Positions 1,975 through 17,863 are shown, numbered from the stretch's first letter. The stretch is DNA of 57,010 bases from an archaeon (GCA_043797265.1 JAZDPV010000002.1:1-57010); one strand, 5' to 3'. Notes: a model not told the origin generated them from the sequence alone. Numbers and translations: made by a program.

Positions 1975-1980
1975 TCTAAA

Positions 1981-2063
1981 TGAGGGAAGGAGGACTCGAA
2001 CCCCCGCAGGCATAAGCCACCTGGTCCTAAGCCAGGCCCGTTTGACCACTCCGGCATTCCCTC
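1981..2063 (-). tRNA. tRNA-Leu (anticodon TAG)
   Basis: Acceptor GAGGGAA/TTCCCTC-A, anticodon arm CCTGG-CTTAGGA-CCAGG, long variable arm, GGTTCGAGTC T arm; CCA not encoded. Confidence 0.93.
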
Positions 2064-2166
2064 ATTATATCTCGGTCAAACCGTTTGACTGAGCGATTCG
2101 CTTTTGCGAATTTATATTCTCTATCTTGAGCAAATGCAAATCGCGAACAGCGTAGGCATTCCCTCA
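2053..2166. repeat. tRNA-end duplication (GGCATTCCCTCA at 2053-2064 and 2155-2166) enclosing a hairpin cassette
   Basis: 12-bp direct repeat; internal segment 2091-2149 is similar to 17793-17849. Confidence 0.85.
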
Positions 2167-2203
2167 CAACCCTACAAACAAAATTAATATAAAAAACTAT
2201 GGT

Positions 2204-5200
2204 TTAAACCTTATTAGAAGAAACAACTCTTTCAAAAATAATCTCACCATCTGAACTCCTTGAAACCAAATAAATCTGTTCTTCTCCGTTCGCCATCAAA
2301 ATCATCATTTGCGTTTCCTCGCTATACTCCTTAACAGAATTAAAGCTTCCGTCCTTACTTAATTTCAAAAACCGCCCACCAGCTCTCACATCGCCATAAC
2401 CACCCTCAACCAAATCATCCCAACTAACTCTCTCCTCTGCACTCTCAACAACTTTCAATCTACACTCCCCTACATCACAATAAGCATTCTCGCCACCGCA
2501 ATCCTCATTAACCCTGCACATCACACACTCACCATTAACACAAAACCCAGCACCACAATCTTCATCAACTCTGCACTCAACATCAACATCACTCGCAACC
2601 GGCTCCGGCTTCATAACAGAACTCTTTCTCTTCTCGCCAACAATCATCCGATAAACACTCGCCTCCAACGCCAACGCCTCCGCCCTGTCCGCATTCGTCC
2701 CAGCCAAACCCTTCTCGTCAACGCCAGTAATACTCGCAAGTTCATTAAAAATATCATCAATCCCCGAACCAACATCAACCACCCCATACCCCGCCAACTC
2801 ACTCGCGCTCAAACCCTTAATCCTCTCGCTCACCGACGCCAAAACTTTCCTGACTTCCTCCAAACTCAACTTCTCGTTCTCAATCAATCCCTTGTTCTTG
2901 TCCAAGACCGCAATCGAACTTCCTTCGACCGTCGCAACTCTTTCCAAATTATTTTTCACACTATCCGAATCCAGCCAGCACCTCATCTTGCTATCCCCGC
3001 AATAACCAACATCCTGCCATCTCGTATCACTAACCCCGCTCCCCGGACTCTGTGTCGCGCAAACCCGAACAATCCCGCTCATCGCAATCTCGGGATTAGC
3101 AACATCCTCCGCCCCCGCCTGCAAATTCAAATTAACCATCGACAAAGCCGACGGACTCCCCGAAATGCACTCGCTCTCCGTCGTGATACTGCTCTTCTCC
3201 GCCTGCTCCTGCACATACTTGTCCTTCACAAAATCCAAACCGAAATCCGTCGTCACCGACTTAAACCCGCACTCTTCCCTCGCATCAATCACAACACACA
3301 ACTCCTTGTAGCCAGCCGGCGCCGTAAAATCAACCGTCTCATCTGCCGACGAACCCTTCGCAATATAACCCGAATCAACCCACACGCTCGGAGTCGAAGC
3401 ATAATAACTCGTCATCGGCGGATTCTTCAGATAAACCCGATACTGAACCCCTTTGTCATTCCCCGCATAAATATGATAATAAACCTTATACTGCGAAGTC
3501 GCTGGCACAGTCGCCTCGCTAAACAAGTTCTCCGAAAACTGCGCATAAAACTGCGTCGGACTTTCCGGCTCCAATAAACTATCCAGCAAATCCGCCGACG
3601 CCGGCACGCTCGTCCCGATAAACGCCCGACAAACCTCACTCCCGACCTCCTCGGTATTCTTCAACTGGAACGCCCTGAAAGCATTCTGCGCATAAACATC
3701 CCTGAAATAACTAATACTCTGTTGCATCGTATTCCACGACTGCTGAACCAACGCATACTCCCCGCCGCCGCGAACTCTCTGCCCCGGCGCAATAATCCCG
3801 GCGACAAAACTCGGCAGCAACTGGTCCAGCACCGGCGACAACTGCCTCCAGAAAAACTCGCACTTGTAAATCGCGGTAATCTCGTCGCAAATCCCGACAA
3901 ACTCCCCGTTCTCCAAATTCTTCTCAAGACAATCTCTCTCTGACTTCAAAATAGAAAGATAAGAATCCAGCCCCGCGTGAATCCCGCTCAGACAAATCGG
4001 AATATAAATTCCCTCAGCCGCATTCGGCAAACACAAAACCAAACTCCCGATAACCCCCGTCTGAATAACATCGCTCACCGGCATCTTCCCGCCAAAATCA
4101 CATCTCGACGGCGGACAAATCACCGGGTCACAAACATTAAACATCAACTTGCATTCGTCCGCGCTCATAAAATCCTGGCACTCAAACCCTCCAACCTGAC
4201 TCATCGGCTTACCTAAATCCATAGTTATATCACTATTCATACAAGCCCTAATTCTAACAACACTCTTACCATTCTGCTCAGACGCTTGTTGAATAGCCTG
4301 CCTCGCACAACTATACAACTTCTTAACATCAACACCCGAACACCCACCAAAACTATCAACACTCCCGACGCTATTTGCATCAAACGACTGGCACAAATCA
4401 TCACCCTGCCCGCTCTGCATCAACCTATCCGAACCAATATTGCAAATCTTAAAATACCTAACATCCCCCGACGCCGTATAACCTTGAGGCGAATCATCCA
4501 AAAAAGTCCCGCCCGAATTCGGAACCATCGCATACCATCCATTCTTCAAATCAAACGGCACAATCGCCGGCAACCCTTTATTCTTCCCGCTCTCATAATA
4601 ACTAACACTCGCCTTCCCCTGCGCCCATGGATTAGAGCAACTCCCAATCTGCACCATTTGAACACTCACTCCACTCACCCTCGGAAGAACCCCTTTATCA
4701 TCTCCAACACTCAACTGTTCAGTAATCCCATTAACTTTGTAAACTCCCAACTGCGCCCCCTTGCTATCAAATACATAAAGATAATTATCAGAATTCACAT
4801 GAACAATCTGTGCACCGACATTATCACTATCTTTAACGCCACCTAAATCTAAATTTTTGCCAACAATCGAAGACAACTTGCCCTTACTAATCCTCATCCC
4901 TCTGTCAGGAAACGCTTTCATCCCCTCAGACAAAACACTAACGGGAAACGACTCGCCCTGAAACACAAACTGCTTCTCTAAATCAAACTGTTCCTTCTTC
5001 CCCTCGACAAACATCGCCGTGTTCCTCAAACTCTGCTCCATCTCTGCCTTCGCCGCCTCGCCCGCAACTCCCTGCCCCTTCATCTCCTCATACAACATCA
5101 CCGCCCTCAACTCCGACACGCTATCAATCTCGCTCACCGACACATTCACAATCTTGCCCCCGCCGACGTCAACCGGAATAATCTTAGAACCAATCTGCCC

Positions 5201-7384
5201 CCTCAAACTCTCAACGTATTTCGTCTGATTAACAACATGCTCCCCGCCAAACAACCCGCCCGACGACTCGACATTCCCCGCCTGCGCCGCGTCCATCTTC
5301 CCATTAACGCTACTCAACGCCGTCGTCATCGCCGTAACATCTTTCTCAATATCATCCTTATAAAAATCATTATAACACTGCGTCCTCGAAATCTCACCAT
5401 GATTCGTATCGCACATCGCCTTGTATTTAGTCATAACTTTTTGCCTCGCAACCGACTCCCCGCTAAATCCAGTTACCGCATTCTTCAGCATCAAAACCGT
5501 CGACGTCGCAAAACACGCGCCCTTCATCCCGCTAATCACATTCCCCAACTTCGAAACAATCCCCTCCCATTTCTCAATCGTCGCATTCAAATTCTTCAGC
5601 ATCTCCTTCGTCTTCGCCGGCGACAACTCAATCCCTCTCTTCTCAATTCCAATCCTAAAACTAAAATCCGCCTCCGTCTTCGTATGCTTCACCTCCGGAA
5701 TCAAATCCACATACGCAACCTCGCTCACCTCAATATTCCTGACATAAACATCAACCCCATAAAAACTATACTGCTCATTATTATTAATCCAAACCACCTC
5801 TGACTTCTCCCCTTTCTTCGAACTCTTGAAACTAATCCTGACCTTTCCCGGAAGAATATCACTAATTGTCATATCCTTCCCATCTCCTATGTTAAAATTC
5901 TCGCCCTTGCTCAAACTCTTTACATCCTTCCCCGCAATTTTCAAATCAACTTTCCTCGCCCCCTCGTCAACTTTCTTGAAATCCACGACGCTAATCGAAT
6001 GAAATTTATTATTCACATAAACACTCACAAAAGAATTACTAAAATCCGTCCCATTAAGCATCTGTCTATTATACCTGACCTGCTCGACAATCTTCGACGA
6101 CGGATACTCCTCAATAAACTTATCCATCAACTCCGCCTGCGTCTTCAATTTCCCAATCTCCCCCGCCAAAACAATCTGCAAATACAACGCCTCCTCCCCA
6201 AACGCTTCCCCCGTTTCCTTCATCTCCGAACCATAAATCTCAACCAAATTATTAACGACCTCATTCGACTTATCAAAATACTTATCAACATCATTAGTCA
6301 AACTACCATCACTCAAAACACTTCCATTCCTCTCACTCAAACTCAACGGCTTCAAATTACTATTCCCCGAACACCTAATGCTAACATTCCCGACCCTATT
6401 CTTATCAACATTAATCTTACTAACCACGCACTTGTCATTCAAAAACTTAGAACCAGCCCTGACCCAAATCTGCTCGTCGTCGATATTCAACAAAGCCGAA
6501 TTCTCCGGCGCAACAATGCTATTCAACTTAATCTTCAACCCCGCTCGGCAATAATAACCCGGCAAATAAGTCAACCCGCTCGTCTCCCCGACTTTCAAAC
6601 TAAATGTTTGGACAACCCTGTCCTTGGAAATCAAAAGCTGAATCCTCGCCGTATCGCCATAAACACTCTCGACTCTCAAATAACCCCGCCCATTCCAAAA
6701 AGCATTTCTATTATAATCCGTCTCCCAATCCTCGTCACTCATCACCGGCAAATAATATTCCGACTGTCCCGTCCCATACGCCTCGTCCGCATCATACCGA
6801 ATCGTCGCCGTCAAATTCCCAGCAACCCACTCCGCCAAATCTCCTTCGACCCGATTCTGCTTCAAAATAATCACGACATACCCGATATTATTTATCAAAG
6901 GGTCTCCCAGCAAAGTATCATAAGATTTCACAGCCGCCCTCGCCGGATGAAACGCAATCCCCGAAACACCGTCGGGATAATTCCCCGTAAAAGAAATCGA
7001 CCTTATCGACGAAACCTTAATCAACGGGTTAACCTTTATTGCATACAACTCGCAAAAAACCGGCACGCTCTGGTCCGCCAGCAAATCACTCCTTACAACA
7101 CTCGGCGTGCACCCGCCCGGCGGAATCCCGATAATAAAATCACTCGTCGCATTGCACTGGTCATTCTTAATCCTGTTCAAAATCGGCCAATAAGTATCCA
7201 TCTGCCCCGCATACAAACGATTAAAATTCGGCTGATAATATTGCCAGCTCCCAATACCCCCGGAATAACTCGAACCAATAGTAGAACCACTAAAATCCAT
7301 CCCCGCACTCCCGCCAAACTGGTCAGCCGCCAACACCGTCGCTGCCATCAAAAACAAAACCCCAATCACAAAATATTTTTTCAC
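2204..7384 (-). CDS. Giant secreted Cys-rich hypothetical protein (~1726 aa)
   Basis: Long ORF; signal peptide KKYFVIGVLFLMAATVLA; probable GTG start overlapping the upstream stop (GTGA); two C-terminal Cys repeats (CRVxEDC...GEC). Confidence 0.9.
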   Translation of the reverse strand: MKKYFVIGVLFLMAATVLAADQFGGSAGMDFSGSTIGSSYSGGIGSWQYYQPNFNRLYAGQMDTYWPILNRIKNDQCNATSDFIIGIPPGGCTPSVVRSDLLADQSVPVFCELYAIKVNPLIKVSSIRSISFTGNYPDGVSGIAFHPARAAVKSYDTLLGDPLINNIGYVVIILKQNRVEGDLAEWVAGNLTATIRYDADEAYGTGQSEYYLPVMSDEDWETDYNRNAFWNGRGYLRVESVYGDTARIQLLISKDRVVQTFSLKVGETSGLTYLPGYYCRAGLKIKLNSIVAPENSALLNIDDEQIWVRAGSKFLNDKCVVSKINVDKNRVGNVSIRCSGNSNLKPLSLSERNGSVLSDGSLTNDVDKYFDKSNEVVNNLVEIYGSEMKETGEAFGEEALYLQIVLAGEIGKLKTQAELMDKFIEEYPSSKIVEQVRYNRQMLNGTDFSNSFVSVYVNNKFHSISVVDFKKVDEGARKVDLKIAGKDVKSLSKGENFNIGDGKDMTISDILPGKVRISFKSSKKGEKSEVVWINNNEQYSFYGVDVYVRNIEVSEVAYVDLIPEVKHTKTEADFSFRIGIEKRGIELSPAKTKEMLKNLNATIEKWEGIVSKLGNVISGMKGACFATSTVLMLKNAVTGFSGESVARQKVMTKYKAMCDTNHGEISRTQCYNDFYKDDIEKDVTAMTTALSSVNGKMDAAQAGNVESSGGLFGGEHVVNQTKYVESLRGQIGSKIIPVDVGGGKIVNVSVSEIDSVSELRAVMLYEEMKGQGVAGEAAKAEMEQSLRNTAMFVEGKKEQFDLEKQFVFQGESFPVSVLSEGMKAFPDRGMRISKGKLSSIVGKNLDLGGVKDSDNVGAQIVHVNSDNYLYVFDSKGAQLGVYKVNGITEQLSVGDDKGVLPRVSGVSVQMVQIGSCSNPWAQGKASVSYYESGKNKGLPAIVPFDLKNGWYAMVPNSGGTFLDDSPQGYTASGDVRYFKICNIGSDRLMQSGQGDDLCQSFDANSVGSVDSFGGCSGVDVKKLYSCARQAIQQASEQNGKSVVRIRACMNSDITMDLGKPMSQVGGFECQDFMSADECKLMFNVCDPVICPPSRCDFGGKMPVSDVIQTGVIGSLVLCLPNAAEGIYIPICLSGIHAGLDSYLSILKSERDCLEKNLENGEFVGICDEITAIYKCEFFWRQLSPVLDQLLPSFVAGIIAPGQRVRGGGEYALVQQSWNTMQQSISYFRDVYAQNAFRAFQLKNTEEVGSEVCRAFIGTSVPASADLLDSLLEPESPTQFYAQFSENLFSEATVPATSQYKVYYHIYAGNDKGVQYRVYLKNPPMTSYYASTPSVWVDSGYIAKGSSADETVDFTAPAGYKELCVVIDAREECGFKSVTTDFGLDFVKDKYVQEQAEKSSITTESECISGSPSALSMVNLNLQAGAEDVANPEIAMSGIVRVCATQSPGSGVSDTRWQDVGYCGDSKMRCWLDSDSVKNNLERVATVEGSSIAVLDKNKGLIENEKLSLEEVRKVLASVSERIKGLSASELAGYGVVDVGSGIDDIFNELASITGVDEKGLAGTNADRAEALALEASVYRMIVGEKRKSSVMKPEPVASDVDVECRVDEDCGAGFCVNGECVMCRVNEDCGGENAYCDVGECRLKVVESAEERVSWDDLVEGGYGDVRAGGRFLKLSKDGSFNSVKEYSEETQMMILMANGEEQIYLVSRSSDGEIIFERVVSSNKV

Positions 7385-7632
7385 CAAATTTCCAACCTCT
7401 CTTTAATTAAACCCATATCCTCTCTAATTTTTCTAAACCCATTCTCAGATTTCATCTCTAACTTAATCAACTTCTCATTCATGCCCCCCATCTTTACAAA
7501 CCCGACCACAATAAACGGAGCAACAACCTGCAAATCCGTAGGGCTATCACCAAAAATTCTCCACAACACCATTATAATTCCAACTATCAAAGAAACCCAA
7601 AATACCACATCCAAAACTTTTATTTTATTCAT
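7381..7632 (-). CDS. Small two-TM membrane protein with coiled-coil tail
   Basis: Two hydrophobic stretches; start and stop overlap both neighbouring genes. Confidence 0.75.
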   Translation of the reverse strand: MNKIKVLDVVFWVSLIVGIIMVLWRIFGDSPTDLQVVAPFIVVGFVKMGGMNEKLIKLEMKSENGFRKIREDMGLIKERLEIW

Positions 7633-9467
7633 TCAAACTCCAAATAAATCCTCTCGTCCTCTGCCCGAAGATAATTCGCCTGCAACCCATCCAAACTGCT
7701 CGGCAACCCGAACAAAGGCACCTTGATATTTAATTCAACCGCGCTCTCCAGCATCCCCGCAGTAATATATTCCATCATCTTCCCGCCGCCAACGACGGCA
7801 AAATCAACATCCATCTCCGGCACATTAATCTCATAACACTTCTCGCTCTGCGCCCCAAACAAACCAGCAAGCCCGCTCTCCGGCACATCAACACACTCAC
7901 TCCTGCTGCTCGCCGGAAACTTCAACGACGAATCATCATAAATAAAAACACTCACATTATAATAACCCTCGACCAACTCGACCGAATCCATCTCCGGGTA
8001 AAGCACCGTCGCCGAATAATCATCCGAAACAAAACTGACCAACGCTTTCTTAACATCGCCCAAATCCAAACCGACCTTATACTTCTTCGCCAAAACAATA
8101 TTCGCAATGTCCTCCTCGTTCGTCGAAATCTGATACTTCGCATCCGCATAACCATCCGCGCTCACTAAAATAAATCCATTAACACACTGCGGAAACTCGC
8201 CCCTCAAAATCGCCTCCCCGTTTTCATTCTTCGTCCCCCCAATCTCGCAAACATCATCCAGGCACCTGAACCGCACCCTCGCCTCGACCGGATTCAAATC
8301 AACATCATAACTATAAACATCAACATCCTGATTCCTAAACTCACAAACTCTCGATTCAATCGAAGCCCCAGTCGTCGTCGGCAACGCAGCCCTCGCCCGA
8401 TTCTTCGAAATCACAACCGCAACCGGGAACTGGAAAATTTCCTTCTCATCGTAAAACTGAACCAGCACCGGGAAATTAATATCATAAACAAAATGATAAG
8501 GCACATAACAAAAACCCATCATCCCCATCCCTTCCTGCAACCCAACCGGCTTCGCAACCATGTCCCCATAAATCTCAATCGACGTCGGCCAGCCCAGCGA
8601 ATAAACAAAATTAACATTCTCATCGATTCTTTCGCCAATATCCGTAACAAAATAACTCTCCTCCTCCGACGACAAATCATAATAACTCCCATCCAACTTC
8701 AGCATCGGGATATTCGCCCCAAGCCCACCAATAATATCTTTCTTAATATTCTCTTCGACAAAAATCTTCGGCGCGCAACCAATCTCCGTCCCCGTCACCG
8801 GCGCATACAGCCTCATCACATCCAGCGCATAATTCTCTAAAAACATCGAACTCTTCTCATAATCATAAACATCAATCGCCATCCCATAAAATTTCCCCAA
8901 CTTGCTTCCGACCGAAAACTTGTGCTCATCAACGACAACCGCACTCTCACCCTTGAAAATCGTAACCTTATTATTAACCTCCAAATCAACACTCAAACTA
9001 TTTATCCTCGATGAAACACTCCCCTCATCAACATAAACATCATAACCCGCCTTTTCAAAATCCGAAAAATCACAATCACCAACTCTCTCCGCAACATAAC
9101 TCGCCAACTCATTCTCCATTCCCGTCCTGCTCGGAACACTTTCCCTCAAAAAATTATTCCCCGAAACATACATCCAATACGGAACCGCCTGCCCCAAAAA
9201 ATTCAACTGCGACGAAAACGGCATATAAGCAGAACCCGACTCAAACTCAGGAATCTCAATCCGCCCCCCCTGCTCCCCCAAAAGATTAATTCCCTCGCGC
9301 GCACTCGCCTCCAAACACGAAATATAACAATCATAAACCGGCCTCAACTCCTCCGGCACACTCTCACCTAAATTATCCCTCAAAAGAAAATACATCGCAA
9401 CCCCGACGACAATCACAACTGCAACAATAATAAAAATCGTAACCTGTGCCCTTCTATCGCCTACCAT
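7629..9467 (-). CDS. Large class III signal-peptide (pilin-like) surface protein, 612 aa
   Basis: MVGDRRA|QVTIFIIVAVVIVVGV prepilin-type N-terminus; beta-rich Cys-containing body. Confidence 0.85.
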   Translation of the reverse strand: MVGDRRAQVTIFIIVAVVIVVGVAMYFLLRDNLGESVPEELRPVYDCYISCLEASAREGINLLGEQGGRIEIPEFESGSAYMPFSSQLNFLGQAVPYWMYVSGNNFLRESVPSRTGMENELASYVAERVGDCDFSDFEKAGYDVYVDEGSVSSRINSLSVDLEVNNKVTIFKGESAVVVDEHKFSVGSKLGKFYGMAIDVYDYEKSSMFLENYALDVMRLYAPVTGTEIGCAPKIFVEENIKKDIIGGLGANIPMLKLDGSYYDLSSEEESYFVTDIGERIDENVNFVYSLGWPTSIEIYGDMVAKPVGLQEGMGMMGFCYVPYHFVYDINFPVLVQFYDEKEIFQFPVAVVISKNRARAALPTTTGASIESRVCEFRNQDVDVYSYDVDLNPVEARVRFRCLDDVCEIGGTKNENGEAILRGEFPQCVNGFILVSADGYADAKYQISTNEEDIANIVLAKKYKVGLDLGDVKKALVSFVSDDYSATVLYPEMDSVELVEGYYNVSVFIYDDSSLKFPASSRSECVDVPESGLAGLFGAQSEKCYEINVPEMDVDFAVVGGGKMMEYITAGMLESAVELNIKVPLFGLPSSLDGLQANYLRAEDERIYLEFE

Positions 9468-9828: not shown

Positions 9829-10025
9829 TTTTTATTCCCACAAAAATGAAACATGAAACATCTTCGATGTTACTTTTTCACCAAAACCCAAACAAACCCA
9901 AACTTATAAACTTTCCTAAATAAATTATTAACTAACTTACTTAGTAAGTTCATCCAACACTCTTAAATCCAATAACTTTTCAAACCCGCCCATAAAAACC
10001 CCAAAAATAAAAAGTGCCACCAAAA

Positions 10026-10487: not shown

Positions 10488-10578
10488 ATACCCAAAATCA
10501 TTTACACTATATTTAAATATTATTGCAGTTGAATTAAGTAACCCATTCTATAACAAATAATCACTCAACTATCTAAAA

Positions 10579-10649
10579 TGATCCCGCCAAGAATCGAACT
10601 TGGACCTATACCAAGTCAAGGTATCGTTCTACCACTAGACTACGGGATC
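10579..10649 (-). tRNA. tRNA-Val (anticodon GAC)
   Basis: Acceptor GATCCCG/CGGGATC-A, anticodon arm ATACC-TTGACTT-GGTAT, GTTCGATTC T loop. Confidence 0.88.
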
Positions 10650-10756
10650 GCAGAGCCCGTAGGATTCATGATGCATCTTCGATGCAACTTTAGACTACGG
10701 GATCCTTCCCGTCGTCTCCATGAAACATCTCCGATGTTACTTTAGACTACGGGATC
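10636..10756. repeat. Three copies of the tRNA-Val 5' end (TAGACTACGGGATC on +) separated by hairpin cassettes
   Basis: 14-bp copies at 10636, 10691 and 10743; spacers contain TGCATC-TTC-GATGCA and AACATC-TCC-GATGTT. Confidence 0.9.
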
Positions 10757-10822
10757 TAATAAACATATAATTCAATCACTTTTAACTTTTCCGCTTCCAA
10801 ACATTTCATAACACCCAATCAG

Positions 10823-10859
10823 AATCCGTGTTAGTCCTGCGTTAGTCCGCGTGCTATTT
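10823..10859. repeat. Orphan copy of the GxxExxY-associated triple repeat
   Basis: AATCCGTG-TTAGTCCTGCG-TTAGTCCGCGTGCTATTT, nearly the same as 42857-42893. Confidence 0.85.
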
Positions 10860-10920
10860 CTCTTCTCTAAAACTAAAAGCTAATAACAAGTTTTAAAAAC
10901 CAAAATCCAAACTTAATACT

Positions 10921-11223
10921 ATGAAAATCCCAAAGACAACAAACAGATACTGCCCCTATTGTAAAAAGAAAACTCCACAAAAAATTAAAGAACCAAGCAA
11001 AGGAAAAGCAAGTTCAATGAAACGCGGAAGCAAAATTAGAATGAAACTCCGAGGACTCTGGCGAGGCATAGGCAACCAGGGAAAATATTCCCGTATGAAA
11101 AACCAAGCAAAACAAAAAAGAAAAACAACTAAGAAAACAAACCTCATGTACACCTGCTCCGTATGCGGAAAATCTAAATATCAAAAGAAAGGCAAACGAA
11201 CCTCAAAAGTTATAATTGAATAA
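10921..11223 (+). CDS. rpl44e: 50S ribosomal protein L44e (eL42)
   Basis: MKIPKTTNRYCPYCKK...CSVCGK Zn ribbon. Confidence 0.95.
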   Translation: MKIPKTTNRYCPYCKKKTPQKIKEPSKGKASSMKRGSKIRMKLRGLWRGIGNQGKYSRMKNQAKQKRKTTKKTNLMYTCSVCGKSKYQKKGKRTSKVIIE

Positions 11224-11852
11224 TGGCAGAAAGAAAAAAATACATCGAAGTTCAAATCCCAATTCTAAATTCCGCGACAAATGTTTTAGGAACCCCGGAA
11301 AATCTAAACAACAAAACAATAAAAATCGACCTGACACGACAACTCCGGGGCAAAGGACTAACAATCAAACTCAAAATAATAAACCAAAAAGGGACACTCA
11401 TCGCCATCCCAAATAGCATGGAACTCTCGATATCCTACATAAGAAGAATCATGCGAAAAAGAATAAGCTACGTCGAAGACTCCTTCAAGACAAAATGCGC
11501 CGACGTCCAAGTCACAATAAAACCATTCCTAATCACGCGAAAAAAAGTCTCAAGGGTAGTTCAAAAAAATCTAAGGAACACCACAAAAGAATTCCTGATA
11601 GAATATGTAAAAGAAAAAGACTACAACCAAATCTGCCACGAAATCCTCGACAGCACACTTCAAAAAACCATGCTCCCAAAACTAAAAAAAATATATCCCC
11701 TCTCCTTTTGCGAAATCAGAAAATTCGAAACAAAAGAACTGGGAAAAATAAACATAGAAAAAGCGTCCAAAATAATCGCCGACCAAGAAAACCAAATTGA
11801 AGAAACACTAAAAGAAGAAACCATCGAAAACAAAGAACCAGAAAAAGAATGA
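11223..11852 (+). CDS. rps3ae: 30S ribosomal protein S3Ae (eS1), short form
   Basis: SYIRRIMRKRISYVEDSF and LKKIYPL motifs; follows rpl44e. Confidence 0.85.
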   Translation: MAERKKYIEVQIPILNSATNVLGTPENLNNKTIKIDLTRQLRGKGLTIKLKIINQKGTLIAIPNSMELSISYIRRIMRKRISYVEDSFKTKCADVQVTIKPFLITRKKVSRVVQKNLRNTTKEFLIEYVKEKDYNQICHEILDSTLQKTMLPKLKKIYPLSFCEIRKFETKELGKINIEKASKIIADQENQIEETLKEETIENKEPEKE

Positions 11853-12568
11853 AAAAAATATTTTTAGGGGCACCAGGCTCGGGCAAAGGAACCGCCGCTT
11901 CAAAAATCGCGCCAAAACGCAACGTCCCGCACATTTCAACAGGCGACCTATTCAGGGAAAATATAAACAAAAAAACGCCCATCGGAGCAAAAGCAAAAGA
12001 ATACATAGAAAAAGGAGAACTTGCCCCGGACGAAATAGTAATTGAAATGTTAAAAAAAAGAATACAACAAGAAGATTGCCAAAACGGATTTATCCTCGAC
12101 GGATTCCCGCGAACAATTTCACAAGCAGAAAAATTATCAAAACTAACTAACATCGACCTCGTAATAAACATAAGCGTCCCAAAAGAAATAATCATCCAAA
12201 GATTATCCTCAAGAATCACCTGCAAAGAATGCGGAAAAATCTTTAACGCAATCTACCATAAACCAAAAAACGAAAGCAAATGCGATCAATGCCATGGGGA
12301 AATAATCAGAAGACCCGACGACAAACCAGAAATTATCCAAAACAGATTAAAAATCTACGAAGAACAAACCGCCCCACTCATCGAATTTTACAAAAGCAAA
12401 GGAATCCTGCAAAATATTTTATGCGACGACATCAACAAGCCAGCAGACGAAACAGCGCAATTAATTATAAACTCTATAAAAGAATTCTCAAACAAAATAA
12501 GTCAAATTATTCTACCTTCAAACCTTTCTTCTTTGGCCTCTTCTTCCTGCTCCTCGAAGTCCCACTAA
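11849..12568 (+). CDS. adk: Adenylate kinase (bacterial type, Zn lid)
   Basis: GAPGSGKGT P-loop, HISTGDLFR, GFILDGFPRT, CKEC...CDQC lid; last ~20 aa probably read-through. Confidence 0.95.
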   Translation: MKKIFLGAPGSGKGTAASKIAPKRNVPHISTGDLFRENINKKTPIGAKAKEYIEKGELAPDEIVIEMLKKRIQQEDCQNGFILDGFPRTISQAEKLSKLTNIDLVINISVPKEIIIQRLSSRITCKECGKIFNAIYHKPKNESKCDQCHGEIIRRPDDKPEIIQNRLKIYEEQTAPLIEFYKSKGILQNILCDDINKPADETAQLIINSIKEFSNKISQIILPSNLSSLASSSCSSKSH

Positions 12569-12653
12569 TTAACTCCCTCAATTTTTTCTTCCTCCGCGCA
12601 ACTCTCCAAGAACGATTCCTATCAAGTCGCTTCGGCTTATTTTTCCCCGGCAT
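12507..12653 (-). CDS. 48-aa Arg/Lys-rich protein (not in ORF track)
   Basis: MPGKNKPKRLDRNRSWRVARRKKKLRELISGTSRSRKKRPKKKGLKVE; TATA-like TTTAAAA about 25 nt upstream. Confidence 0.6.
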   Translation of the reverse strand: MPGKNKPKRLDRNRSWRVARRKKKLRELISGTSRSRKKRPKKKGLKVE

Positions 12654-12700
12654 AATAACTAATCAAAAAATCACATTTTAAATCTTTTGTTTGACTCACA

Positions 12701-12772
12701 AGCCTGCGAAGGGAGTCAAACCCTCGACCCTCTGTTTACAAGACAGATGCTCTATCACTGAGCTACGCAGGC
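12701..12772 (-). tRNA. tRNA-Thr (anticodon TGT)
   Basis: Acceptor GCCTGCG/CGCAGGC-T, anticodon arm TCTGT-CTTGTAA-ACAGA; non-canonical D-loop GA and T-loop TTTGA. Confidence 0.9.
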
Positions 12773-12811
12773 ACAATATACCATCAAGAAACCTTGTTTT
12801 AAACTTTTTGG

Positions 12812-12926
12812 ACTCACAATTAATTTTAATTTTCGGTAGGGAATTTCGCAGCGTAAAAATTTCTGCAGTGTATTCAAATACATAAAGAAATTTTTACCAA
12901 GAAATTACCAGCGAAAATTAAAATTA
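12812..12926. mobile_element. MITE-like ~110-bp palindromic element, copy 1
   Basis: 15-bp terminal inverted repeats TAATTTTAATTTTCG/CGAAAATTAAAATTA, internal stem; near-identical copy at 39677-39793. Confidence 0.75.
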
Positions 12927-13481
12927 ATCCTCATCAATGACTTCAACCCGCTTATCCTTTTCAAGAATATCCACAATTTCAAATTCTAAATTTGCAACCT
13001 CTCCCTTCCCAAACGGCCCAACATCCCTCCCGCTAATCCCTAAAAACTCCGGCACATCCTCGAGAAATCTAACCAACCGATGTTTCCTCTCATCCCTCGC
13101 CGAACCAAACATATCAACCGCCTGATTTTTTTCCGCCCTCTCCAGCGCCTTCACCAACTCCTCAAACAAATCCTTCTCGAACCCCAGCAAATTCTCAAAA
13201 TCCTTCTTCGAAATCCCAACCTGCGACGCCACAAACGCCAAATTTAAAATCTTCTTTTTCCGAATCCTCAGCAAATCCCTAAAACTCGAAACCGCATTAT
13301 CCAACTTCTTCTTGTTTTTAATCGCAACATCCGAAAACAAATCGTCCTCCTTCCCAAGAAACTCCTTCTTCTCCCGAAAATACTCCGACACCTCAATCAA
13401 AAACCTCTTCGGCAAAACCTGCAAATTCTCGCTATACTTCTCTTTCCTCATCGCTTCATAAATATCGCTAAACGTCAACAT
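12924..13481 (-). CDS. DNA replication GINS complex subunit (GINS15/51-like)
   Basis: Helical A domain (RKEK...LQVLPKRF...RKKKI...L.FEK.LF) plus C-terminal B domain (VRFLEDVPEFLG...GPF..GEVA). Confidence 0.85.
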   Translation of the reverse strand: MLTFSDIYEAMRKEKYSENLQVLPKRFLIEVSEYFREKKEFLGKEDDLFSDVAIKNKKKLDNAVSSFRDLLRIRKKKILNLAFVASQVGISKKDFENLLGFEKDLFEELVKALERAEKNQAVDMFGSARDERKHRLVRFLEDVPEFLGISGRDVGPFGKGEVANLEFEIVDILEKDKRVEVIDED

Positions 13482-13556
13482 CCCAACAAAAAATCTACCC
13501 CATTTAAAAGAATTGTTATACTAAACAAATTTAAACCAAAACCGCCTCGAAAAACC

Positions 13557-14606
13557 ATGTTCGACTCACTGAAATCAAAACTAAAAAACTGGCTAAACAA
13601 AAATAAAGATGCCCCAGATACCAGGGGATACGCCGAGCGGCGACCCATAGCCGAAACCCCAAAAAAAGAAAAGAAAAAAATCAAGACCAAAAAACCAAAA
13701 AACGAATTAGAATTATCTTTAAAAAAAACAATTGAAACACCAATTGAAAAAGAGAGCTTCTTCTCCAAATTCAAAAAACGACTGACTGAAGAAAAATTCG
13801 AAGAACTCTTCCAAGAACTCGAAATGATTCTCCTGCAAAACAACGTCGCATACGAGGCTGTCCAATCAATAAAAAACTCCCTCGCTGAAAAACTAATCGG
13901 CAAAATCCTAAACGAAGTCGACCTCTCAAAAGAACTCAAAGAATCAATCGAATCAATTCTAATCAACCCGCCAGACTTCCTAAAAGAAATCAAGAACTCG
14001 TTAGAAATAAAAAAACCATTCGTAATCCTCTTCGCCGGAATCAATGGCTCCGGCAAAACAACGACAATCGCGAAAGTCGCAAACTATCTCCAAAAAAATA
14101 AACTAACTGTCTGCCTCGCCGCTGCCGACACTTTCCGAGCCGCCGCAATCCAGCAACTCGAAGAACACGCAACCAAACTAAAAGTTCCATTAACAAAAAA
14201 AGATTATGGCTCAGACCCAGCATCCGTCGGATTCGAAGCAATCGCACGCGCAAAAAAAAATAAAATCGACGTCGTCCTAATCGACACCGCCGGCCGAATG
14301 CAAAACCGCGACTCGCTAATGAAAGAAATAGAAAAAATCTCACGAATCACAAAGCCAAACATGACAATCTTCATCGGCGAATCAATAACCGGCAACGACG
14401 CAACCGAACAAGCCAAAACATTCAACGACGCAATCAACATAACCGGAATAATCCTATCTAAAGCCGACGTCGACGAAAAAGGCGGCACCGCAATCTCCGT
14501 CTCCCACATCACAAAAAAACCAATCCTATTCCTCGGAACCGGCCAATCCTACAACGATTTAGAAATTTTCGACAAAAAAAAGATTATTGAAAAACTAGAA
14601 CTATGA
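13557..14606 (+). CDS. ftsY: Signal recognition particle receptor FtsY
   Basis: GINGSGKTTT, DTFRAAA, DTAGR, KADVDEKGG, GTGQSYNDL. Confidence 0.96.
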   Translation: MFDSLKSKLKNWLNKNKDAPDTRGYAERRPIAETPKKEKKKIKTKKPKNELELSLKKTIETPIEKESFFSKFKKRLTEEKFEELFQELEMILLQNNVAYEAVQSIKNSLAEKLIGKILNEVDLSKELKESIESILINPPDFLKEIKNSLEIKKPFVILFAGINGSGKTTTIAKVANYLQKNKLTVCLAAADTFRAAAIQQLEEHATKLKVPLTKKDYGSDPASVGFEAIARAKKNKIDVVLIDTAGRMQNRDSLMKEIEKISRITKPNMTIFIGESITGNDATEQAKTFNDAINITGIILSKADVDEKGGTAISVSHITKKPILFLGTGQSYNDLEIFDKKKIIEKLEL

Positions 14607-15202
14607 AATTAAACATCCCTTTTCGCAAATCAGAAATAGACACAGAATGCGCCCAAAGATGTCTCCAAATGGTTCTTGAATATTTCGAACAAAAACATTC
14701 AATCAAAGAACTCTCAAAACTAACCAAACAACTCCCATCTGGAATGACATGGACAGCAGGAATAGCAAGAGCTTCAAAAATTCTCGGGTTCGAAACAAAA
14801 ATAATTTCCAAAACAAATTTTTCCCACGACGAAAACGAAATAAAATATTACAAAGAACACGCAAAAGAAATGAAAACACTTTACAATTTAATCAAAAAAA
14901 ATAAAAAACTAAAAATCTCGACAGAAGAAGAAAATCTCTCAATCAATCAACTAATAAAACTCCTAACAAAAAATTCAATCCCGATAATTCTTATTAATTG
15001 GAATACATTAATCCAAAAAGAAAATTATCAAGGACATTTTGTAGTTCTTTCAGGATATGACAATAAAAATATATATATTCACAACCCTGGCATAGCAAAA
15101 GCCCAGCCATTTATGAAAATCAAAAAAGAATTATTCAAAAAAGCATGGGAATCAAAAGGCACCGACAAAGACATTGTATTAATTTCAAAACCCAAAATTT
15201 AA
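14603..15202 (+). CDS. Peptidase C39-like protein
   Basis: ECAQRCLQMVL catalytic Cys region, GHFVVLSGYD, HNP. Confidence 0.8.
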   Translation: MKLNIPFRKSEIDTECAQRCLQMVLEYFEQKHSIKELSKLTKQLPSGMTWTAGIARASKILGFETKIISKTNFSHDENEIKYYKEHAKEMKTLYNLIKKNKKLKISTEEENLSINQLIKLLTKNSIPIILINWNTLIQKENYQGHFVVLSGYDNKNIYIHNPGIAKAQPFMKIKKELFKKAWESKGTDKDIVLISKPKI

Positions 15203-15227
15203 TAACTCCAATTAAACCCCTATTTCT

Positions 15228-16586
15228 ATGGTACTAGACAAACTCGGCTCAGCGATAAAAGGCGGAATAAACAAAATATCAAACGCGATATTCGTCGACA
15301 AGAAACTCATAGATGGAATCGTCAAAGAAATCCAAAAAGCCCTAATCGAAGCCGACGTCAACGTCGAACTAGTTTTACAACTATCTCAAAAAATAAAAAA
15401 ACTCGCTTACGACGAAAACATAAAAAACATCGACAAAAAAGAACAACTAATAAAACTAATCCACGACGAAATTCTAAATCTATTAGGCGAAAAATCCGAA
15501 CTCAAACTCCAAAAACAAACCTCAATAATATTCCTCGGACTTTACGGCGCCGGAAAAACAACGACAATCGCGAAAGTTGGATTCTATTATGCAAAACGAG
15601 GACGAAAAGTTGCTTTACTTGGATTAGACACTCAGCGACCAGCCGCGATGGACCAGCTCGAACAAATGGCAAAAAAAGCCAAACTCTCAGTCTTCGTCGA
15701 CAAAAAAGAAAAAGACCCAATCAAAATAATTAACAATTTCGAAAAAGACCTCAAAAAATACGACCTCATCTTAATCGACACCGCCGGCCGCGACGGACTG
15801 AACAAAGAATTAACAAAAGAAATCGAGAAACTAAACAAGAAACTAAAACCAACCTACCGAATTTTAGTAATGCCCGCCGACATCGGGCAAGCCGCGAAAA
15901 CTCAAACTCAAGAATTCCAAAAAGCACTTTCCATCGACGGTGTAATAATCACGCGAATGGACGGAACTTCAAAAGCCGGAGGAGCCCTGACCGCTTGCGC
16001 CGAAACCAAAGCCCCAGTTTTCTTCATCGGAGTCGGCGAACAAATCCACGAAATCGAAACCTTCGACCCAGAATCTTTCATCTCAAGAATACTCGGGATG
16101 GGCGACCTCCAAGGCCTACTCGAACACGTCAAATCCGCGACATCCGAAAAACAAATAAAAAAAGCCGAAGCCAGATTAAAAGAAGGCAAATTCACTCTCC
16201 GCGATTTGCAAACTCAATTAGAACAAATGAACAAAATGGGAAGTATGGACAAACTAATCGGCATGATTCCTGGAATGTCGTCAGCAAAACTCCCAAAAGA
16301 CGTCCTCGCAAAACAAGAACAAAAAATGTCCCACTGGAAAAACGCAATCTCCTCAATGACCGAACTCGAAATTGAAACCCCCGAAATCCTCGAAAAACAA
16401 ACCTCCCGAATCCAGCGAATCGCAAAAGGTTCCGGCACAACCACAACCGAAATCCGCGAACTCCTAAAACAATACAAACTCCTCAAAGAAATGATGAGCA
16501 TGCAATCCGGACTCACCGACGGCAAAATCGACCAAAAGATGATGCAGAAAATGGCGAAAAAATTTAAAGGGAAAATTAAATTATGA
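15228..16586 (+). CDS. srp54: Signal recognition particle 54 kDa protein
   Basis: ALIEADVN, GLYGAGKTTT, DTAGR, RILGMGD, M domain SRIQRIAKGSGT. Confidence 0.97.
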   Translation: MVLDKLGSAIKGGINKISNAIFVDKKLIDGIVKEIQKALIEADVNVELVLQLSQKIKKLAYDENIKNIDKKEQLIKLIHDEILNLLGEKSELKLQKQTSIIFLGLYGAGKTTTIAKVGFYYAKRGRKVALLGLDTQRPAAMDQLEQMAKKAKLSVFVDKKEKDPIKIINNFEKDLKKYDLILIDTAGRDGLNKELTKEIEKLNKKLKPTYRILVMPADIGQAAKTQTQEFQKALSIDGVIITRMDGTSKAGGALTACAETKAPVFFIGVGEQIHEIETFDPESFISRILGMGDLQGLLEHVKSATSEKQIKKAEARLKEGKFTLRDLQTQLEQMNKMGSMDKLIGMIPGMSSAKLPKDVLAKQEQKMSHWKNAISSMTELEIETPEILEKQTSRIQRIAKGSGTTTTEIRELLKQYKLLKEMMSMQSGLTDGKIDQKMMQKMAKKFKGKIKL

Positions 16587-16886
16587 TTTTGTCCTGTACC
16601 CCGTTCCATATACCTCACAATAATATTCATCACAAGAATAAGCGCAATGTTCCTTTCGTAAAATTTTAAATCTTACTCCAAAAACACAAGAACATCCTTC
16701 CCTATCTGCCTTTCCTTTTAATAGTTCTATAGCCTTTCTAAACGCAGATTCTTTTCCACCATGATACTCCCCATTCCCTCGACACAAAAGCATTTCCCCC
16801 ATTTCTAACCCGGGAAACAACTCCAATCCACCCGCACCCCTAAAAGATTGATTAGTAACCAAAACCTGCTCCTTCCCTTTTGCCAT
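16581..16886 (-). CDS. Small protein, possibly YbjQ/UPF0145-like
   Basis: KAIELLKGKADREGCSCVFGVRF...VYGTG resembles the YbjQ core pattern. Confidence 0.55.
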   Translation of the reverse strand: MAKGKEQVLVTNQSFRGAGGLELFPGLEMGEMLLCRGNGEYHGGKESAFRKAIELLKGKADREGCSCVFGVRFKILRKEHCAYSCDEYYCEVYGTGYRTKS

Positions 16887-16939
16887 ACATAATTTACAAT
16901 CCTAATACTTATAAAAACAACTATACTCCAAAATATATA

Positions 16940-17581
16940 ATGAAACCACAATTAATATCCCAAGGCGCCGAAGCAAAAATATACCTAATTGAAAATCCGC
17001 GCTCATCCTGCGAGAATCCGCGTGCTAAATTATCGTCCAACAAACACACCCTCAAATCCAGAACCCCAAAATCCTACCGCCACCCGCAACTCGACAACCA
17101 AATCCGAACACGCCGAACAAAATCCGAAGCAAAAATCCTAACCAAAGCATTCTCCATCGGAGCCAACGTCCCAAAAGTTATAACTCAAAACAAATTCGAC
17201 CTCGAAATACAATTCATCGACGGAGACCGCCTCTCCGAAACCCTAAACTCTTATCCCGAAAAAAAACAATTCCAAATCATGCAGCAACTCGGAACCCAAG
17301 TCGCCCTCCTCCACGCAAACAACATAATCCACGGCGACCTCACAACTTCAAACACAATCCTCTCAAGTAACCAAGTTTACCTAATCGACTTCGGTTTAAG
17401 CTTCATCTCAACAAAAACCGAAAACAAGGCCGTCGACATCCACCTGCTCAAACAAGCCCTCGAAGCAAAACATTTCCAAAACCACGAATCTCTTTTTAAA
17501 AATTTCCTAAAAACCTACCGCAACAAAGAAATCATCGAACACCTAAAAACCGTCGAAAAACGCGGCCGCTACAAACATTAA
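16940..17581 (+). CDS. bud32: KEOPS complex kinase Bud32
   Basis: QGAEAKI, KSYRHPQLD, HGDLTTSN, IDFGL, KRGRY; start moved to ATG 16940, which has a TATA box at about 16908-16917. Confidence 0.93.
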   Translation: MKPQLISQGAEAKIYLIENPRSSCENPRAKLSSNKHTLKSRTPKSYRHPQLDNQIRTRRTKSEAKILTKAFSIGANVPKVITQNKFDLEIQFIDGDRLSETLNSYPEKKQFQIMQQLGTQVALLHANNIIHGDLTTSNTILSSNQVYLIDFGLSFISTKTENKAVDIHLLKQALEAKHFQNHESLFKNFLKTYRNKEIIEHLKTVEKRGRYKH

Positions 17582-17658
17582 CCTTTAATTAATCTTCGAT
17601 TAATTTATGCTCTTCTTATAGAAGAGCTTAAAAATTCCCAAACTCTATCTAAGCTACT

Positions 17659-17731
17659 AGCCTCGTAGTCTAGTGGTCAAGGATGCAGGGTTTTGGTCCC
17701 TGTGACCCAGGTTCGAATCCTGGCGAGGCTA
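17659..17731 (+). tRNA. tRNA-Gln (anticodon TTG)
   Basis: Acceptor AGCCTCG/CGAGGCT-A, anticodon arm CAGGG-TTTTGGT-CCCTG, GGTTCGAATCC. Confidence 0.93.
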
Positions 17732-17863
17732 TATGTTATTGAGCAAAGCGAAATAATATTATTCTATCCAGGATGAGAACCGATGGTTCGACGAGCAATT
17801 CGCTTTTACGAATTATTTCACTATCTTGAGTAAATGCAAATTGCGAGCACTGGCGAGGCTATA
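17720..17863. repeat. tRNA-Gln 3' end duplication (CTGGCGAGGCTATA) enclosing a hairpin cassette
   Basis: 14-bp direct repeat at 17720 and 17850; cassette shared with the tRNA-Leu locus. Confidence 0.88.

Follow-up and report, generated by a model that had tools for sequence, protein, structure and literature searches.

The three repeat-bearing cassettes that accompany tRNA genes in the window, the whole 57,010-nt stretch of archaeal DNA analysed here, are best explained as local cases of a genus-wide set of small non-coding DNA modules that form hairpins. At tRNA genes, the module sits within a dead second copy of the gene, which ranges from a duplicate of the whole promoter and tRNA to only 12-18 nt of one tRNA end. 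The initial annotation of this DNA had proposed a tiny non-autonomous element that leaves its tRNA target intact. Such an element is indeed discernible, being discrete, multi-copy, present at filled and absent from empty sites and devoid of any gene, and a working tRNA gene is always found beside the cassette. The end repeats described at Leu (12-nt), Val (14-nt, twice) and Gln (14-nt) were all recovered, and so were the inverted tRNA pieces in the three cassettes.

Five tRNA genes lie in the window, ARAGORN and Rfam being in agreement. The intact tRNA-Leu(tag) gene occupies 1980..2064 on the minus strand (ARAGORN; Rfam 55.9 bits), and its 12-nt 5' end (positions 1-12, original at 2053-2064) is copied on the same strand at 2155..2166, with a period of 102. 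This repeat constitutes the outer end of a dead partial gene copy. At the junction, the palindrome GGTCAAAC/CGTTTGAC (2074..2090, unstranded; 8-nt arms, 7 matched, 1-nt loop) consists of an inverted copy (GGTCAAAC, 2074-2081) and a direct copy (2082-2089) of a piece of the Leu D-loop and marks the point where the intact gene gives way to the dead one. It is followed by a core hairpin module of subfamily 1 (2087..2150, minus strand; covariance model R1, 63.2 bits), whose T.G-paired form is on the minus, G+T-rich strand. Directly past the repeat at 2155-2166 stands the promoter-like TTTTTATATTAA. On the plus strand, the intact tRNA-Gln(ttg) gene (17658..17732; ARAGORN, Rfam) has the last 13-14 nt of its 3' end (original at 17720-17733) copied at 17850..17863, with a period of 130. 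Its inverted T-arm piece (17768..17791, plus strand) comprises an imperfect CCAGGATGAGAACC (17768-17781), a GAT loop and the direct piece GGTTCGA, the same inverted T-arm/loop/direct arrangement as in the Gln cassettes of G013, G064 and G036. The core module at Gln, also of subfamily 1 (17789..17850, minus strand; R1, 63.7 bits), likewise has its T.G form on the minus, G+T-rich strand, and the kinship claimed for the Leu and Gln cores was confirmed, with 87.5% identity over 56 nt between 2091-2146 and 17793-17846. The Gln end copy at 17850-17863 directly adjoins the promoter region of rpS15.

At the intact tRNA-Val(gac) gene (10579..10649, minus strand; ARAGORN, Rfam) two cassettes follow one another on the minus strand. 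Cassette 1, which adjoins the tRNA (10650..10704), is ordered as a CTCTGC spacer, then CCCGTAG (10656-10662), which is tRNA positions 3-9 in inverted form, then hairpin module E at 10665-10690 and, last, a copy of positions 1-14 (10691-10704); it is absent from G031 and G023. The outer cassette 2 (10705..10756), orthologous to the single cassette of G031, carries a degenerate inverted copy, TCCCGTCGTCT (10707-10717), module E (10717-10742) and positions 1-14 once more (10743-10756). Beyond it lies the promoter-like AAAAGTTAAAAG. No ORF is contained in the 40-120 bp inserts at Leu, Val and Gln. The duplications are not due to chance, since an exact repeat of 12-14 nt occurs within 130 nt and the pattern recurs at 17 of 33 tRNAs genome-wide.

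The core is a two-helix hairpin element of about 60 nt whose outer helix, 9 bp long and with one T.G pair that is near-invariant, is followed by a 5x5 internal loop, then by the inner helix and by a loop rich in A/T; its ends read GCRATTTGC/GCGAATYGC. A second family in the window, the Val-type module, spans about 26 nt with the form AAGTAAC-stem-loop-stem-TTCATGRA. The core is not limited to the Leu and Gln loci, as the initial annotation had allowed it might be: a covariance model search of the 625-kb genome returned 23 matches at E<=0.1, 20 of them below 1e-7. Moreover, 31 of the 36 genomes compared from this genus contain it, against none of 24 from elsewhere in the order (8 other families). 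An assembly artefact is unlikely because the same architecture appears in 31 independently assembled genomes. In an alignment of 67 core copies (65 distinct) fitted to the covariance model, 94.7% of cells are paired, 15 of 17 pairs display compensatory changes and the T.G pair is retained in 63 of the 65. When folded as DNA, the form on the G+T strand is the more stable one in 18 of 20 core copies (-10.3 vs -8.9 kcal/mol). Of 62 distinct core copies, 31 have a near-perfect hairpin adjoining one end and 3 have one at the other end (mean of 3.5 with shuffled flanks), and comparison of the flanks of 62 copies yielded neither a constant flanking sequence nor a conserved target tetranucleotide. The proposed targeting of tRNA genes stands for 19 of the 21 placed core copies, which adjoin one, but cores are also found in the gene for 16S rRNA and within a different hairpin module. 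A search of the literature for such cassettes found no published description.

Partial self-copies accompany at least 17 of the 33 tRNA genes of the genome. The duplicated end is not a target-site duplication of fixed length made by the cassette; it is what is left of a second copy of the gene, be it partial or whole. This revised reading is founded on the whole or long module-bearing copies upstream of Trp, Pro, Arg(tcg), Phe, Cys and Ser(gga), the short forms being those of Leu, Gln, Met, Ile, Thr and Gly. The dead copy of Trp, for instance, retains positions 1-54, the core and positions 60-73, and its promoter has been duplicated as well. At the junction there is usually an inverted copy of the adjoining tRNA piece, which generates a direct-inverted-direct pattern. 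Individual tRNAs have from 0 to 4 cassettes, with arrays of mixed modules at Ile (three to four), Met (two) and, in G013, Gln (three). The units measure 52-130 bp and their repeats 10 to 18 nt or more, extending at some loci past the gene end or over the whole gene and its promoter. Across species, the tRNA-end copies follow the sequence of their own tRNA and the Gln cassettes keep a diverged inverted piece, while Leu cassettes share a boundary (position 12) and the linker TACGC across isoacceptors as well as species. Copy A of Pro carries a compensatory A1-U72 change, which hints at a past function of this module-bearing copy.

Comparison with relatives supplied the empty alleles that the initial annotation had asked to look for. 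Between Gln and rpS15, G031 and G023 have an empty site, the window genome and G013 a filled one; the empty alleles at Leu(tag) are those of G005 and G022, and the Val site forms a series of 0, 1 and 2 cassettes in G023, G031 and the window genome, respectively. The extra Val unit of the window genome lies beside the tRNA, and its inverted piece is the less decayed of the two. As judged from these sequences, Val cassette 1 is the newer and cassette 2 the older, with new units entering beside the working gene. The 16S rRNA gene of this genome contains a core insertion of about 61 nt in a tolerant loop region, clean and without duplication, which is absent in all 26 relatives in which both flanks were matched (3 of them checked base by base). 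Similarly, a paralogous hairpin module is empty in contig C17 and filled by a core in C14. Both the 16S and the C14 insertions are clean, with an overlap of 3 nt at most, demonstrating that the core can insert without a duplication of the tRNA type. Comparison of filled sites with empty ones, in relatives and in a paralogue, shows that the modules are discrete insertions.

The orientation of the modules by chromosome strand instead of transcription, the weakest suggestion of the initial annotation (n=3), has become its best-supported part. The two DNA strands are strongly skewed in composition. All 20 cores of this genome present the same form on the A+C-rich strand, and all 10 Val-type modules obey the rule. 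Among 45 copies in relatives, 23 agree and 3 disagree, which leaves 19 unscorable (23 of 26 scorable copies in agreement); the genome of the 3 that break the rule has only a weak skew, and the loci on which they were scored are short. With respect to the transcription of the tRNA, the modules are sense at some genes and antisense at others, which argues against a role in the pre-tRNA. The side on which the cassette lies is also biased, since at 17 of 21 loci of this genome it is the same chromosomal side, with Arg 3', Asn, copy A of Pro and Leu(aag) as exceptions; in relatives 14 copies agree, 3 do not and 28 are unscorable. G012, in which the Leu(tag) gene has been turned around, still has both of that gene's cassettes on the same chromosomal side. 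By analogy with bacteria and mitochondria, the G+T-rich strand would be the one exposed for longer, that is, the lagging-strand template.

A replication-coupled process acting on single-stranded DNA stands about an even chance of being what lies behind the cassettes and the dead copies. The events would take place during replication, when the exposed strand could fold and tRNA genes could adopt cloverleaves whose foot is the exact gene end. Modules would then be inserted, or copied by template switching of the polymerase, at hairpin loops and at such feet, and a switch back would produce the inverted piece and the second direct copy. The survivors would be those products that keep or rebuild an intact tRNA, because a tRNA cannot tolerate the insert. 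Later deletions might shorten the dead copy down to a repeat too short for recombinational loss. Several observations complicate this scheme. Neither a dedicated enzyme nor a direct mechanistic trace was found, the genes searched for including those of Y1 transposases, tyrosine recombinases and Cas1. Duplication and insertion may be two separate processes joined by survivorship alone, although partial copies free of modules should then be common and they are not. The shared Leu boundary and linker, together with the conserved diverged inverted piece of Gln, are better accounted for by descent or site-specificity than by repeated switching de novo, and end copies that track their own tRNA need fast turnover, gene conversion or function.

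Among the alternatives, transposition of single strands is unlikely but has the most to recommend it. Here the modules would be satellites akin to REPs or PATEs, moved in trans by a Y1 (HUH) transposase into the lagging-strand template in the manner of IS200/IS605 elements, and the tRNA duplications would be secondary. Their imperfect palindrome with a fixed mismatch, their orientation strictly bound to the DNA strand and the clean 16S and C14 insertions with no more than 3 nt of overlap are in agreement with this, and a Y1_Tnp gene exists in this genome (C18:86959-87294, 81.9 bits). IS608-type elements are reported to target the lagging-strand template (PMC5027513, PMC6006769). REP/BIME-RAYT systems and PATEs (IS200/IS605-derived palindrome-associated elements) act as single-stranded DNA with an orientation bound to replication (PMC5027513, PMC6006769), where the modules studied here are bound to strand skew. 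Both they and the modules are short, non-coding and multi-copy, forming imperfect palindromes whose stem asymmetry is fixed; for the modules, however, no matching Y1 distribution or matching ends were found, and they are confined to one genus and sit, along with an inverted copy of the target, within partial tRNAs. Indeed, Y1_Tnp was detected in 8 of 41 genomes of the genus against 31 of 36 for the core, and G026 and G012, with 22 and 14 core copies, gave no Y1 match. The ends of an IS200-like element in G029 are unlike the core, no conserved target tetranucleotide stands beside the module, and the Y1 copy of this genome has an open frame of only 112 aa, scores 36 bits against the REP-associated type (cut-off 80) and is flanked by other hairpins. 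A MITE was rejected, since inverted ends are present but neither a fixed target-site duplication nor a parent element was found. A tyrosine recombinase similar to Xer or integron integrases might alternatively join a small circle, made of a module and a tRNA-end copy, to the tRNA end, regenerating the site and building arrays. This is less probable still, even though each unit stands between direct repeats of the tRNA end, arrays mix modules, the newest unit adjoins the gene, two proteins exceed the NCBIfam XerA/integron-integrase cut-off (231 and 236 vs 220 bits) and a third tyrosine recombinase is encoded. With its pair of helices, its unpaired middle and its variable tip, the core may resemble folded attC sites in shape. 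Nevertheless, the units are cargo-free at 52-130 bp, the repeats vary from 10 to 18 nt or more and sometimes reach beyond the gene end or include gene and promoter, the core enters 16S and C14 without such repeats and, as both the direct and the inverted pieces correspond to the local tRNA, a separate lineage of elements would have to be assumed for every tRNA. The attC consensus comprises the R'/R'' boxes GTTRRRY / RYYYAAC; no GTTRRRY-type boxes are visible in the core, and an integron attC cassette was rejected by comparison of this consensus with the core ends, GCRATTTGC/GCGAATYGC, and for its want of ORFs. The integrase genes lie away from the cassettes, on C1, C12 and C18. Of the enzymes suggested at the outset, Y1_Tnp and tyrosine recombinases do occur. 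A repeated tRNA segment and an intact gene are shared with integrase att-site elements, which were discarded for an insert of 40-120 bp without ORF where an integrase or cargo would be expected. Partial tRNA gene copies at attL/attR similarly show an intact tRNA and a direct end repeat around inserted DNA, with gene-carrying inserts of 1.8-23 kb and repeats of about 44 bp (PMC9897764, PMC3293823). The present cassettes differ in being short and gene-free, in adding an inverted tRNA piece, in stacking in arrays and in using either tRNA end according to the chromosome strand. Casposons duplicate 14-15 bp of target at tRNA ends. Integration of the casposon or Cas1 type was dismissed, with no PF01867 match in this genome (83% complete) and repeats without fixed length. 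CRISPR spacer uptake and casposons also duplicate a short defined sequence at each insertion and grow at one fixed end of the array, whereas the repeats described here vary in length and the inserts carry inverted pieces derived from the target.

The intron and RNA-function readings fit poorly, as does that of an integrase scar. It is very improbable that the cassettes are functional parts of the pre-tRNA or small RNAs (processing signals, modification guides or regulators). Their helices are conserved with compensatory changes, end copies and inverted pieces follow the local tRNA across species, the Gln inverted piece being kept in diverged form, and an RNase P RNA is present, so that long leaders could be processed. 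Yet orientation obeys the DNA strand and is sense or antisense depending on the tRNA, close relatives have empty orthologous sites, the copy number at a single tRNA ranges from 0 to 4, Rfam gave no family match on 8 loci even at E up to 5, and no conserved promoter stands beside the module. Scarcely any credence can be given to a reading of the modules as archaeal bulge-helix-bulge introns, whether active or relic, that occupy non-canonical positions, with the module-bearing copies as real tRNA genes. Removal of the core from copy A of Trp does leave a canonical T-loop, TTCTAAT, the A1-U72 change of Pro copy A is compensatory, and a splicing endonuclease is found in 36 of 40 relatives. However, excision of the core with margins of -4 to +11 nt restored an ARAGORN tRNA in 0 of 37 copies of relatives, every module-bearing copy of this genome has an adjacent intact twin, most copies lack most of the gene, bases of the T-loop or D-loop are lost at the junction, and inspection by eye of the junctions at Trp, Pro and 16S revealed no bulge-helix-bulge. 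The endonuclease has short frames of 171-236 aa that occur singly, which we take to be the strict type. Fujishima et al. in 2010 reportedly described 'transposition' of tRNA introns in Thermoproteales, where various tRNAs are interrupted, each at its own position, by short sequences almost identical to one another; in the present case the interrupted copies are dead and lie beside an intact gene, the modules obey the DNA strand and a splice motif was not seen by eye.

For the replication-coupled process on single-stranded DNA, parallels exist in other systems. In organelles, small A/T-rich genomes whose strands are extremely asymmetric are invaded by selfish hairpin repeats, and the cloverleaves that tRNAs form in the displaced strand serve as sites of breakage or priming. 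The host considered here is an archaeal chromosome and the modules are unrelated in sequence to those organelle repeats and tandem duplications; to our knowledge, direct-inverted-direct junctions are not a described organelle feature. Rickettsia palindromic elements are small hairpin repeats that have entered the essential genes of a reduced genome, those for RNAs included, and the 16S core insertion is a parallel to them. We know of no report of strand polarity or of coupling to partial gene duplication for those elements, unlike for the modules. A more general proposal, advanced with considerable doubt, is that DPANN modules spread without a dedicated transposase, as the replicative polymerase would switch between hairpins of the exposed strand with the single-stranded tRNA cloverleaf as a landing pad. 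In a bolder variant, the modules might be kept as strand-specific priming hairpins on the exposed strand, in analogy to the light-strand origin beside mitochondrial tRNA genes, which is a priming hairpin.

The origin of interrupted, split and permuted tRNA genes in archaea is an old open question, for which kilobase-sized integrating elements or an 'intron transposition' of no known mechanism have been proposed. If modules do spread by polymerase switching, each event would leave a working gene and a dead module-bearing piece, constituting a steady natural source of such genes. The genus provides a dense and still active record, in which more than half of the tRNA genes have dead pieces of themselves holding a mobile hairpin. 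Empty, single and double states at one site, together with strand polarity, make a replication-coupled single-strand origin of tRNA disruption directly testable. For annotators, repeats of tRNA ends and insertions in 16S in DPANN bins can be real. Another tRNA gene of the window, tRNA-Thr(tgt), has a lone inverted copy of its T-arm, GAGTCAAAC (12689..12697, minus strand), 3 nt past the gene and without accompanying module or direct copy. Upstream of the same gene there is a nested perfect hairpin (12819..12928, unstranded) with arms of 17 nt and 12 nt, which belongs to another family of hairpin modules.

The window contains five tRNA genes, for which ARAGORN and Rfam make the same calls, and the duplications of tRNA ends that the initial annotation had described for three of them were recovered exactly as claimed. 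The first 12 nt of tRNA-Leu(tag) (1980-2064, minus strand) reappear at 2155-2166, the first 14 nt of tRNA-Val(gac) (10579-10649, minus strand) are found again at 10691-10704 and at 10743-10756, and the last 13-14 nt of tRNA-Gln(ttg) (17658-17732, plus strand) recur at 17850-17863. The inverted tRNA pieces reported within these cassettes were also found, and the core common to the Leu and Gln cassettes, a two-helix hairpin module of about 60 nt, displays 87.5% identity across 56 nt. At gathering scores Rfam detects tRNAs only in the whole window, and a search relaxed up to E 5 on eight cassette loci returned no credible family. None of the public sequencing runs contained the stretch (best share of sampled words, 0.07) and no RNA run was listed.

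The genome to which the window belongs, as contig C2, spans 625 kb in 18 contigs and is 83% complete. The core turned out not to be limited to the two loci at which it was first noticed, a restriction that, coupled with a lack of empty orthologous sites, would have refuted the original proposal: nhmmer detects 20 copies at E<1e-7 in this genome, and a covariance model built from 19 copies gives 23 matches at E<=0.1. Nineteen of the 21 copies that were placed lie beside a tRNA gene, one within the 16S rRNA gene and one within another hairpin module. When each tRNA was compared by BLAST with its own flanks, without using the core, direct partial copies were revealed at 17 of 33 tRNAs, and modules are present at Thr(ggt) and Lys(ctt) without a direct copy detectable in this way. 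The core family is confined to the genus, being found in 31 of 36 congeneric genomes (1-22 copies apiece) and in none of 24 genomes belonging to eight other families of the order.

When folded, the core has an outer helix of 9 bp, followed inwards by a 5x5 internal loop, an inner helix of 6-9 bp and a loop that is A/T-rich and variable. In an alignment of 67 copies (65 distinct) that was fitted to the model and hence favours structure, 94.7% of cells are paired, compensatory changes are seen in 15 of the 17 pairs and a T.G (U.G) pair is retained in 63 of the 65 distinct cores. In 31 of 62 distinct copies a near-perfect hairpin stands flush with one end of the core, as against 3 of 62 for the other end, the mean for shuffles being 3.5. 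A second Trp gene, for which the 38-bp promoter region is duplicated as well, is situated upstream of tRNA-Trp and carries a core in its T-loop (positions 1-54, core, positions 60-73). Long module-bearing copies like this one are also present at Pro, Arg(tcg), Phe, Cys and Ser(gga). In the window, the short cassettes are trimmed-down versions of these dead gene copies, and consequently the "duplicated end" is the outer end of the dead copy; their order is the outer tRNA end, the module, a short piece taken from across the D- or T-loop, its inverted copy, a spacer and the intact gene. The duplicated stretch extends beyond the mature tRNA end into flanking DNA at Leu(aag), Trp, Phe and Arg, and so the event took place at the DNA level. 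Across species, tRNA-end copies follow the sequence of their own tRNA; all Leu cassettes have a constant boundary and a TACGC linker, and the inverted piece of the Gln cassettes is conserved in diverged form.

The core is accompanied by other module families. The Val cassettes hold a second one of about 26 nt (AAGTAAC-stem-loop-stem-TTCATGRA), located between the direct and inverted copies of the tRNA start, and at Leu(aag) and Ser(gga) a slot of this kind is filled by a third family (TACCCCTTCGGGGCACGAG...). This third module, TACCCCTTCGGGGCACGAGGACCTGCGAGCAGG, stands three times in tandem within the 3' dead copy of Leu(aag) (contig C18, 81313-81460) and a single time in the dead Ser(gga) copy, at position 25/26 (C16, 40535-40580). 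In copy A, the upstream module-bearing copy of tRNA-Pro (C18, 8690-8830; locus L011), G1 is changed to A and C72 to T with respect to the intact gene; these changes are compensatory (A1-U72) and keep the first acceptor pair. On contig C7 (2318-3563), an RNase P RNA scoring 83.1 bits, slightly below the Rfam cut-off, lies upstream of two repeat units of about 225 nt, each of which contains tRNA-Phe pieces and core fragments.

Empty alleles, which the initial annotation had suggested seeking at orthologous loci, were found at Gln, Leu(tag) and Val. The Gln-rpS15 site is empty in the congeners G031 and G023, is filled in this genome and holds a three-fold filling in G013. At TFB-Leu(tag), the site has no cassette in G005 and G022, where the promoter is directly upstream, and is filled in G013. 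Val(gac) has no cassette in G023, one in G031 and two in this genome, whose extra unit adjoins the tRNA and contains the better-preserved inverted piece; it follows that new units are added at the working gene. A core of about 61 nt also resides in the 5' domain of the 16S rRNA gene of this genome, near model position 193 within a loop region (C14, 138-203; locus L008). It is absent from all 26 relatives with both flanks matched, three of them checked base by base, and no part of the 16S is duplicated at the insertion; in this gene the insert is either an expansion of recent date or an intervening sequence. In addition, the hairpin module downstream of tRNA-Cys on C17 has a paralogue on C14 with a core in an internal loop, CTC being all that is common at the junction.

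The strongest result of the analysis is the strand polarity of the modules. In each contig of this genome one strand is 0.60-0.69 A+C across nearly its full length, and the core is in the same form on this A+C-rich strand in 20 of 20 copies, so that the T.G-paired form is on the G+T-rich strand; the form on the latter has the more stable DNA fold in 18 of the 20. Val-type modules obey the same kind of rule (10 of 10), and among the copies in relatives there are 23 agreements and three disagreements, another 19 copies being unscorable on fetched loci that are short or weakly skewed. An orientation fixed relative to the tRNA was rejected, as the core occurs in both directions with respect to transcription. 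Orientation by chromosome strand rather than transcription, the most tentative point of the initial annotation, is therefore borne out. Read along the A+C-rich strand, moreover, the side of the intact gene on which the dead copy lies is constant at 17 of 21 loci in this genome (exceptions: Arg 3', Asn, Pro copy A and Leu(aag)), and relatives give 14 cases for this rule and three against. As a consequence, the cassette is at the 3' end of tRNAs with an A+C-rich sense strand and at the 5' end of the others. This side rule is supported by a natural experiment: the Leu(tag) gene is inverted with respect to this genome in G031, G023 and G012 (loci L103, L104 and L105), and in G012 two cassettes lie at the 3' end of the inverted gene, which is the chromosomal side of the 5' cassette of this genome. 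Downstream of the TFB gene, the promoter of the inverted Leu(tag) is inverted too and, judging by match strands, many other congeners are arranged likewise.

That the modules are discrete, polymorphic and fixed in strand points to a process acting on single-stranded DNA while the chromosome is replicated. Breakpoints fall at the gene ends, which form the cloverleaf foot, and, in the D and T arms, at the loop or the foot. Polymerase template switching at hairpins would yield direct-inverted-direct junctions, and may be how those of the cassettes arose. Because a tRNA cannot carry a 60-nt insert, only products keeping an intact copy would survive; the insertion in a tolerant 16S loop is clean. 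It is also possible that the modules are moved in trans by a Y1 enzyme or a Xer-like recombinase. This genome has one IS200-like HUH transposase (Y1) gene with a 112-aa open frame and three tyrosine recombinases, two of them above the XerA/integron-integrase cut-off, and IS608-type elements are reported to have a lagging-strand bias (PMC5027513, PMC6006769). Y1 is found in 8 of 41 genomes of the genus and a reverse transcriptase (RT) in 15 of 41, and neither distribution matches that of the core. The multi-copy IS200-like element of G029 was discarded as its source, since its ends are unlike the core. RNase P RNA is present in this genome; at 83% completeness, TnpB, Cas1 and the splicing endonuclease gave no match. 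Of 40 relatives, 36 have the endonuclease.

Introns, integrase scars, functional leaders and artefacts fit the cassettes poorly. Excision of the core from 37 copies of relatives restored the tRNA in none. C/D-box, H/ACA and K-turn motifs were sought in the modules by eye only, with no consistent boxes, and the same kind of inspection found no bulge-helix-bulge at the junctions; these readings were dropped. Retro-copying of mature tRNAs was rejected: it would leave CCA after the discriminator, and the 3'-end copies hold the genomic base instead; besides, promoters are co-duplicated at Trp, Phe and Arg, and the sole RT is group-II-like, below cut-off (137 bits) and limited to the 15 genomes mentioned. 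Regarding integrases, partial tRNA copies are left by integrating elements of 1.8-23 kb (PMC9897764, PMC3293823), whereas the mini-cassettes of this genome are gene-free; full-text literature searches, which also led to reviews of tRNA introns, turned up no account of gene-free mini-cassettes like these.

Several additional observations concern these subjects. Two tRNAs with a predicted or probable intron were noted: tRNA-Glu(ctc) on C1 (6090-6296), with a 134-nt intron at the canonical position (ARAGORN, intron option), and a 106-nt Rfam tRNA of 55.7 bits just upstream of the Leu(caa) cassette (C18, 72265-72370; locus L012, 16-121), missed by ARAGORN without the intron option and probably carrying an intron. 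The RT (344 aa; C3, 9894-11262; locus L114), which has several copies in some genomes, overlaps by 4 nt the start of a gene for a 113-aa tRNA-binding-domain protein (Trbp111/CsaA-like). The Y1 gene (C18, 86900-87350; locus L090, 1440-1870) is preceded by the hairpin CTACATC-CTTGAA-GATGTAG, which is similar to the Val-type module in both stem and loop. In the window, tRNA-Thr(tgt) is followed after 3 nt by an inverted copy, 9 nt long, of its T-arm (12689-12697), without module or direct copy, and upstream of this gene a 110-nt nested perfect hairpin with 17-nt and 12-nt arms (12819-12928) probably represents a further module family whose style is like that of the C17/C14 module. Finally, 25 nt at 9852-9876, with no tRNA near, are 96% identical to part of the Val cassette.
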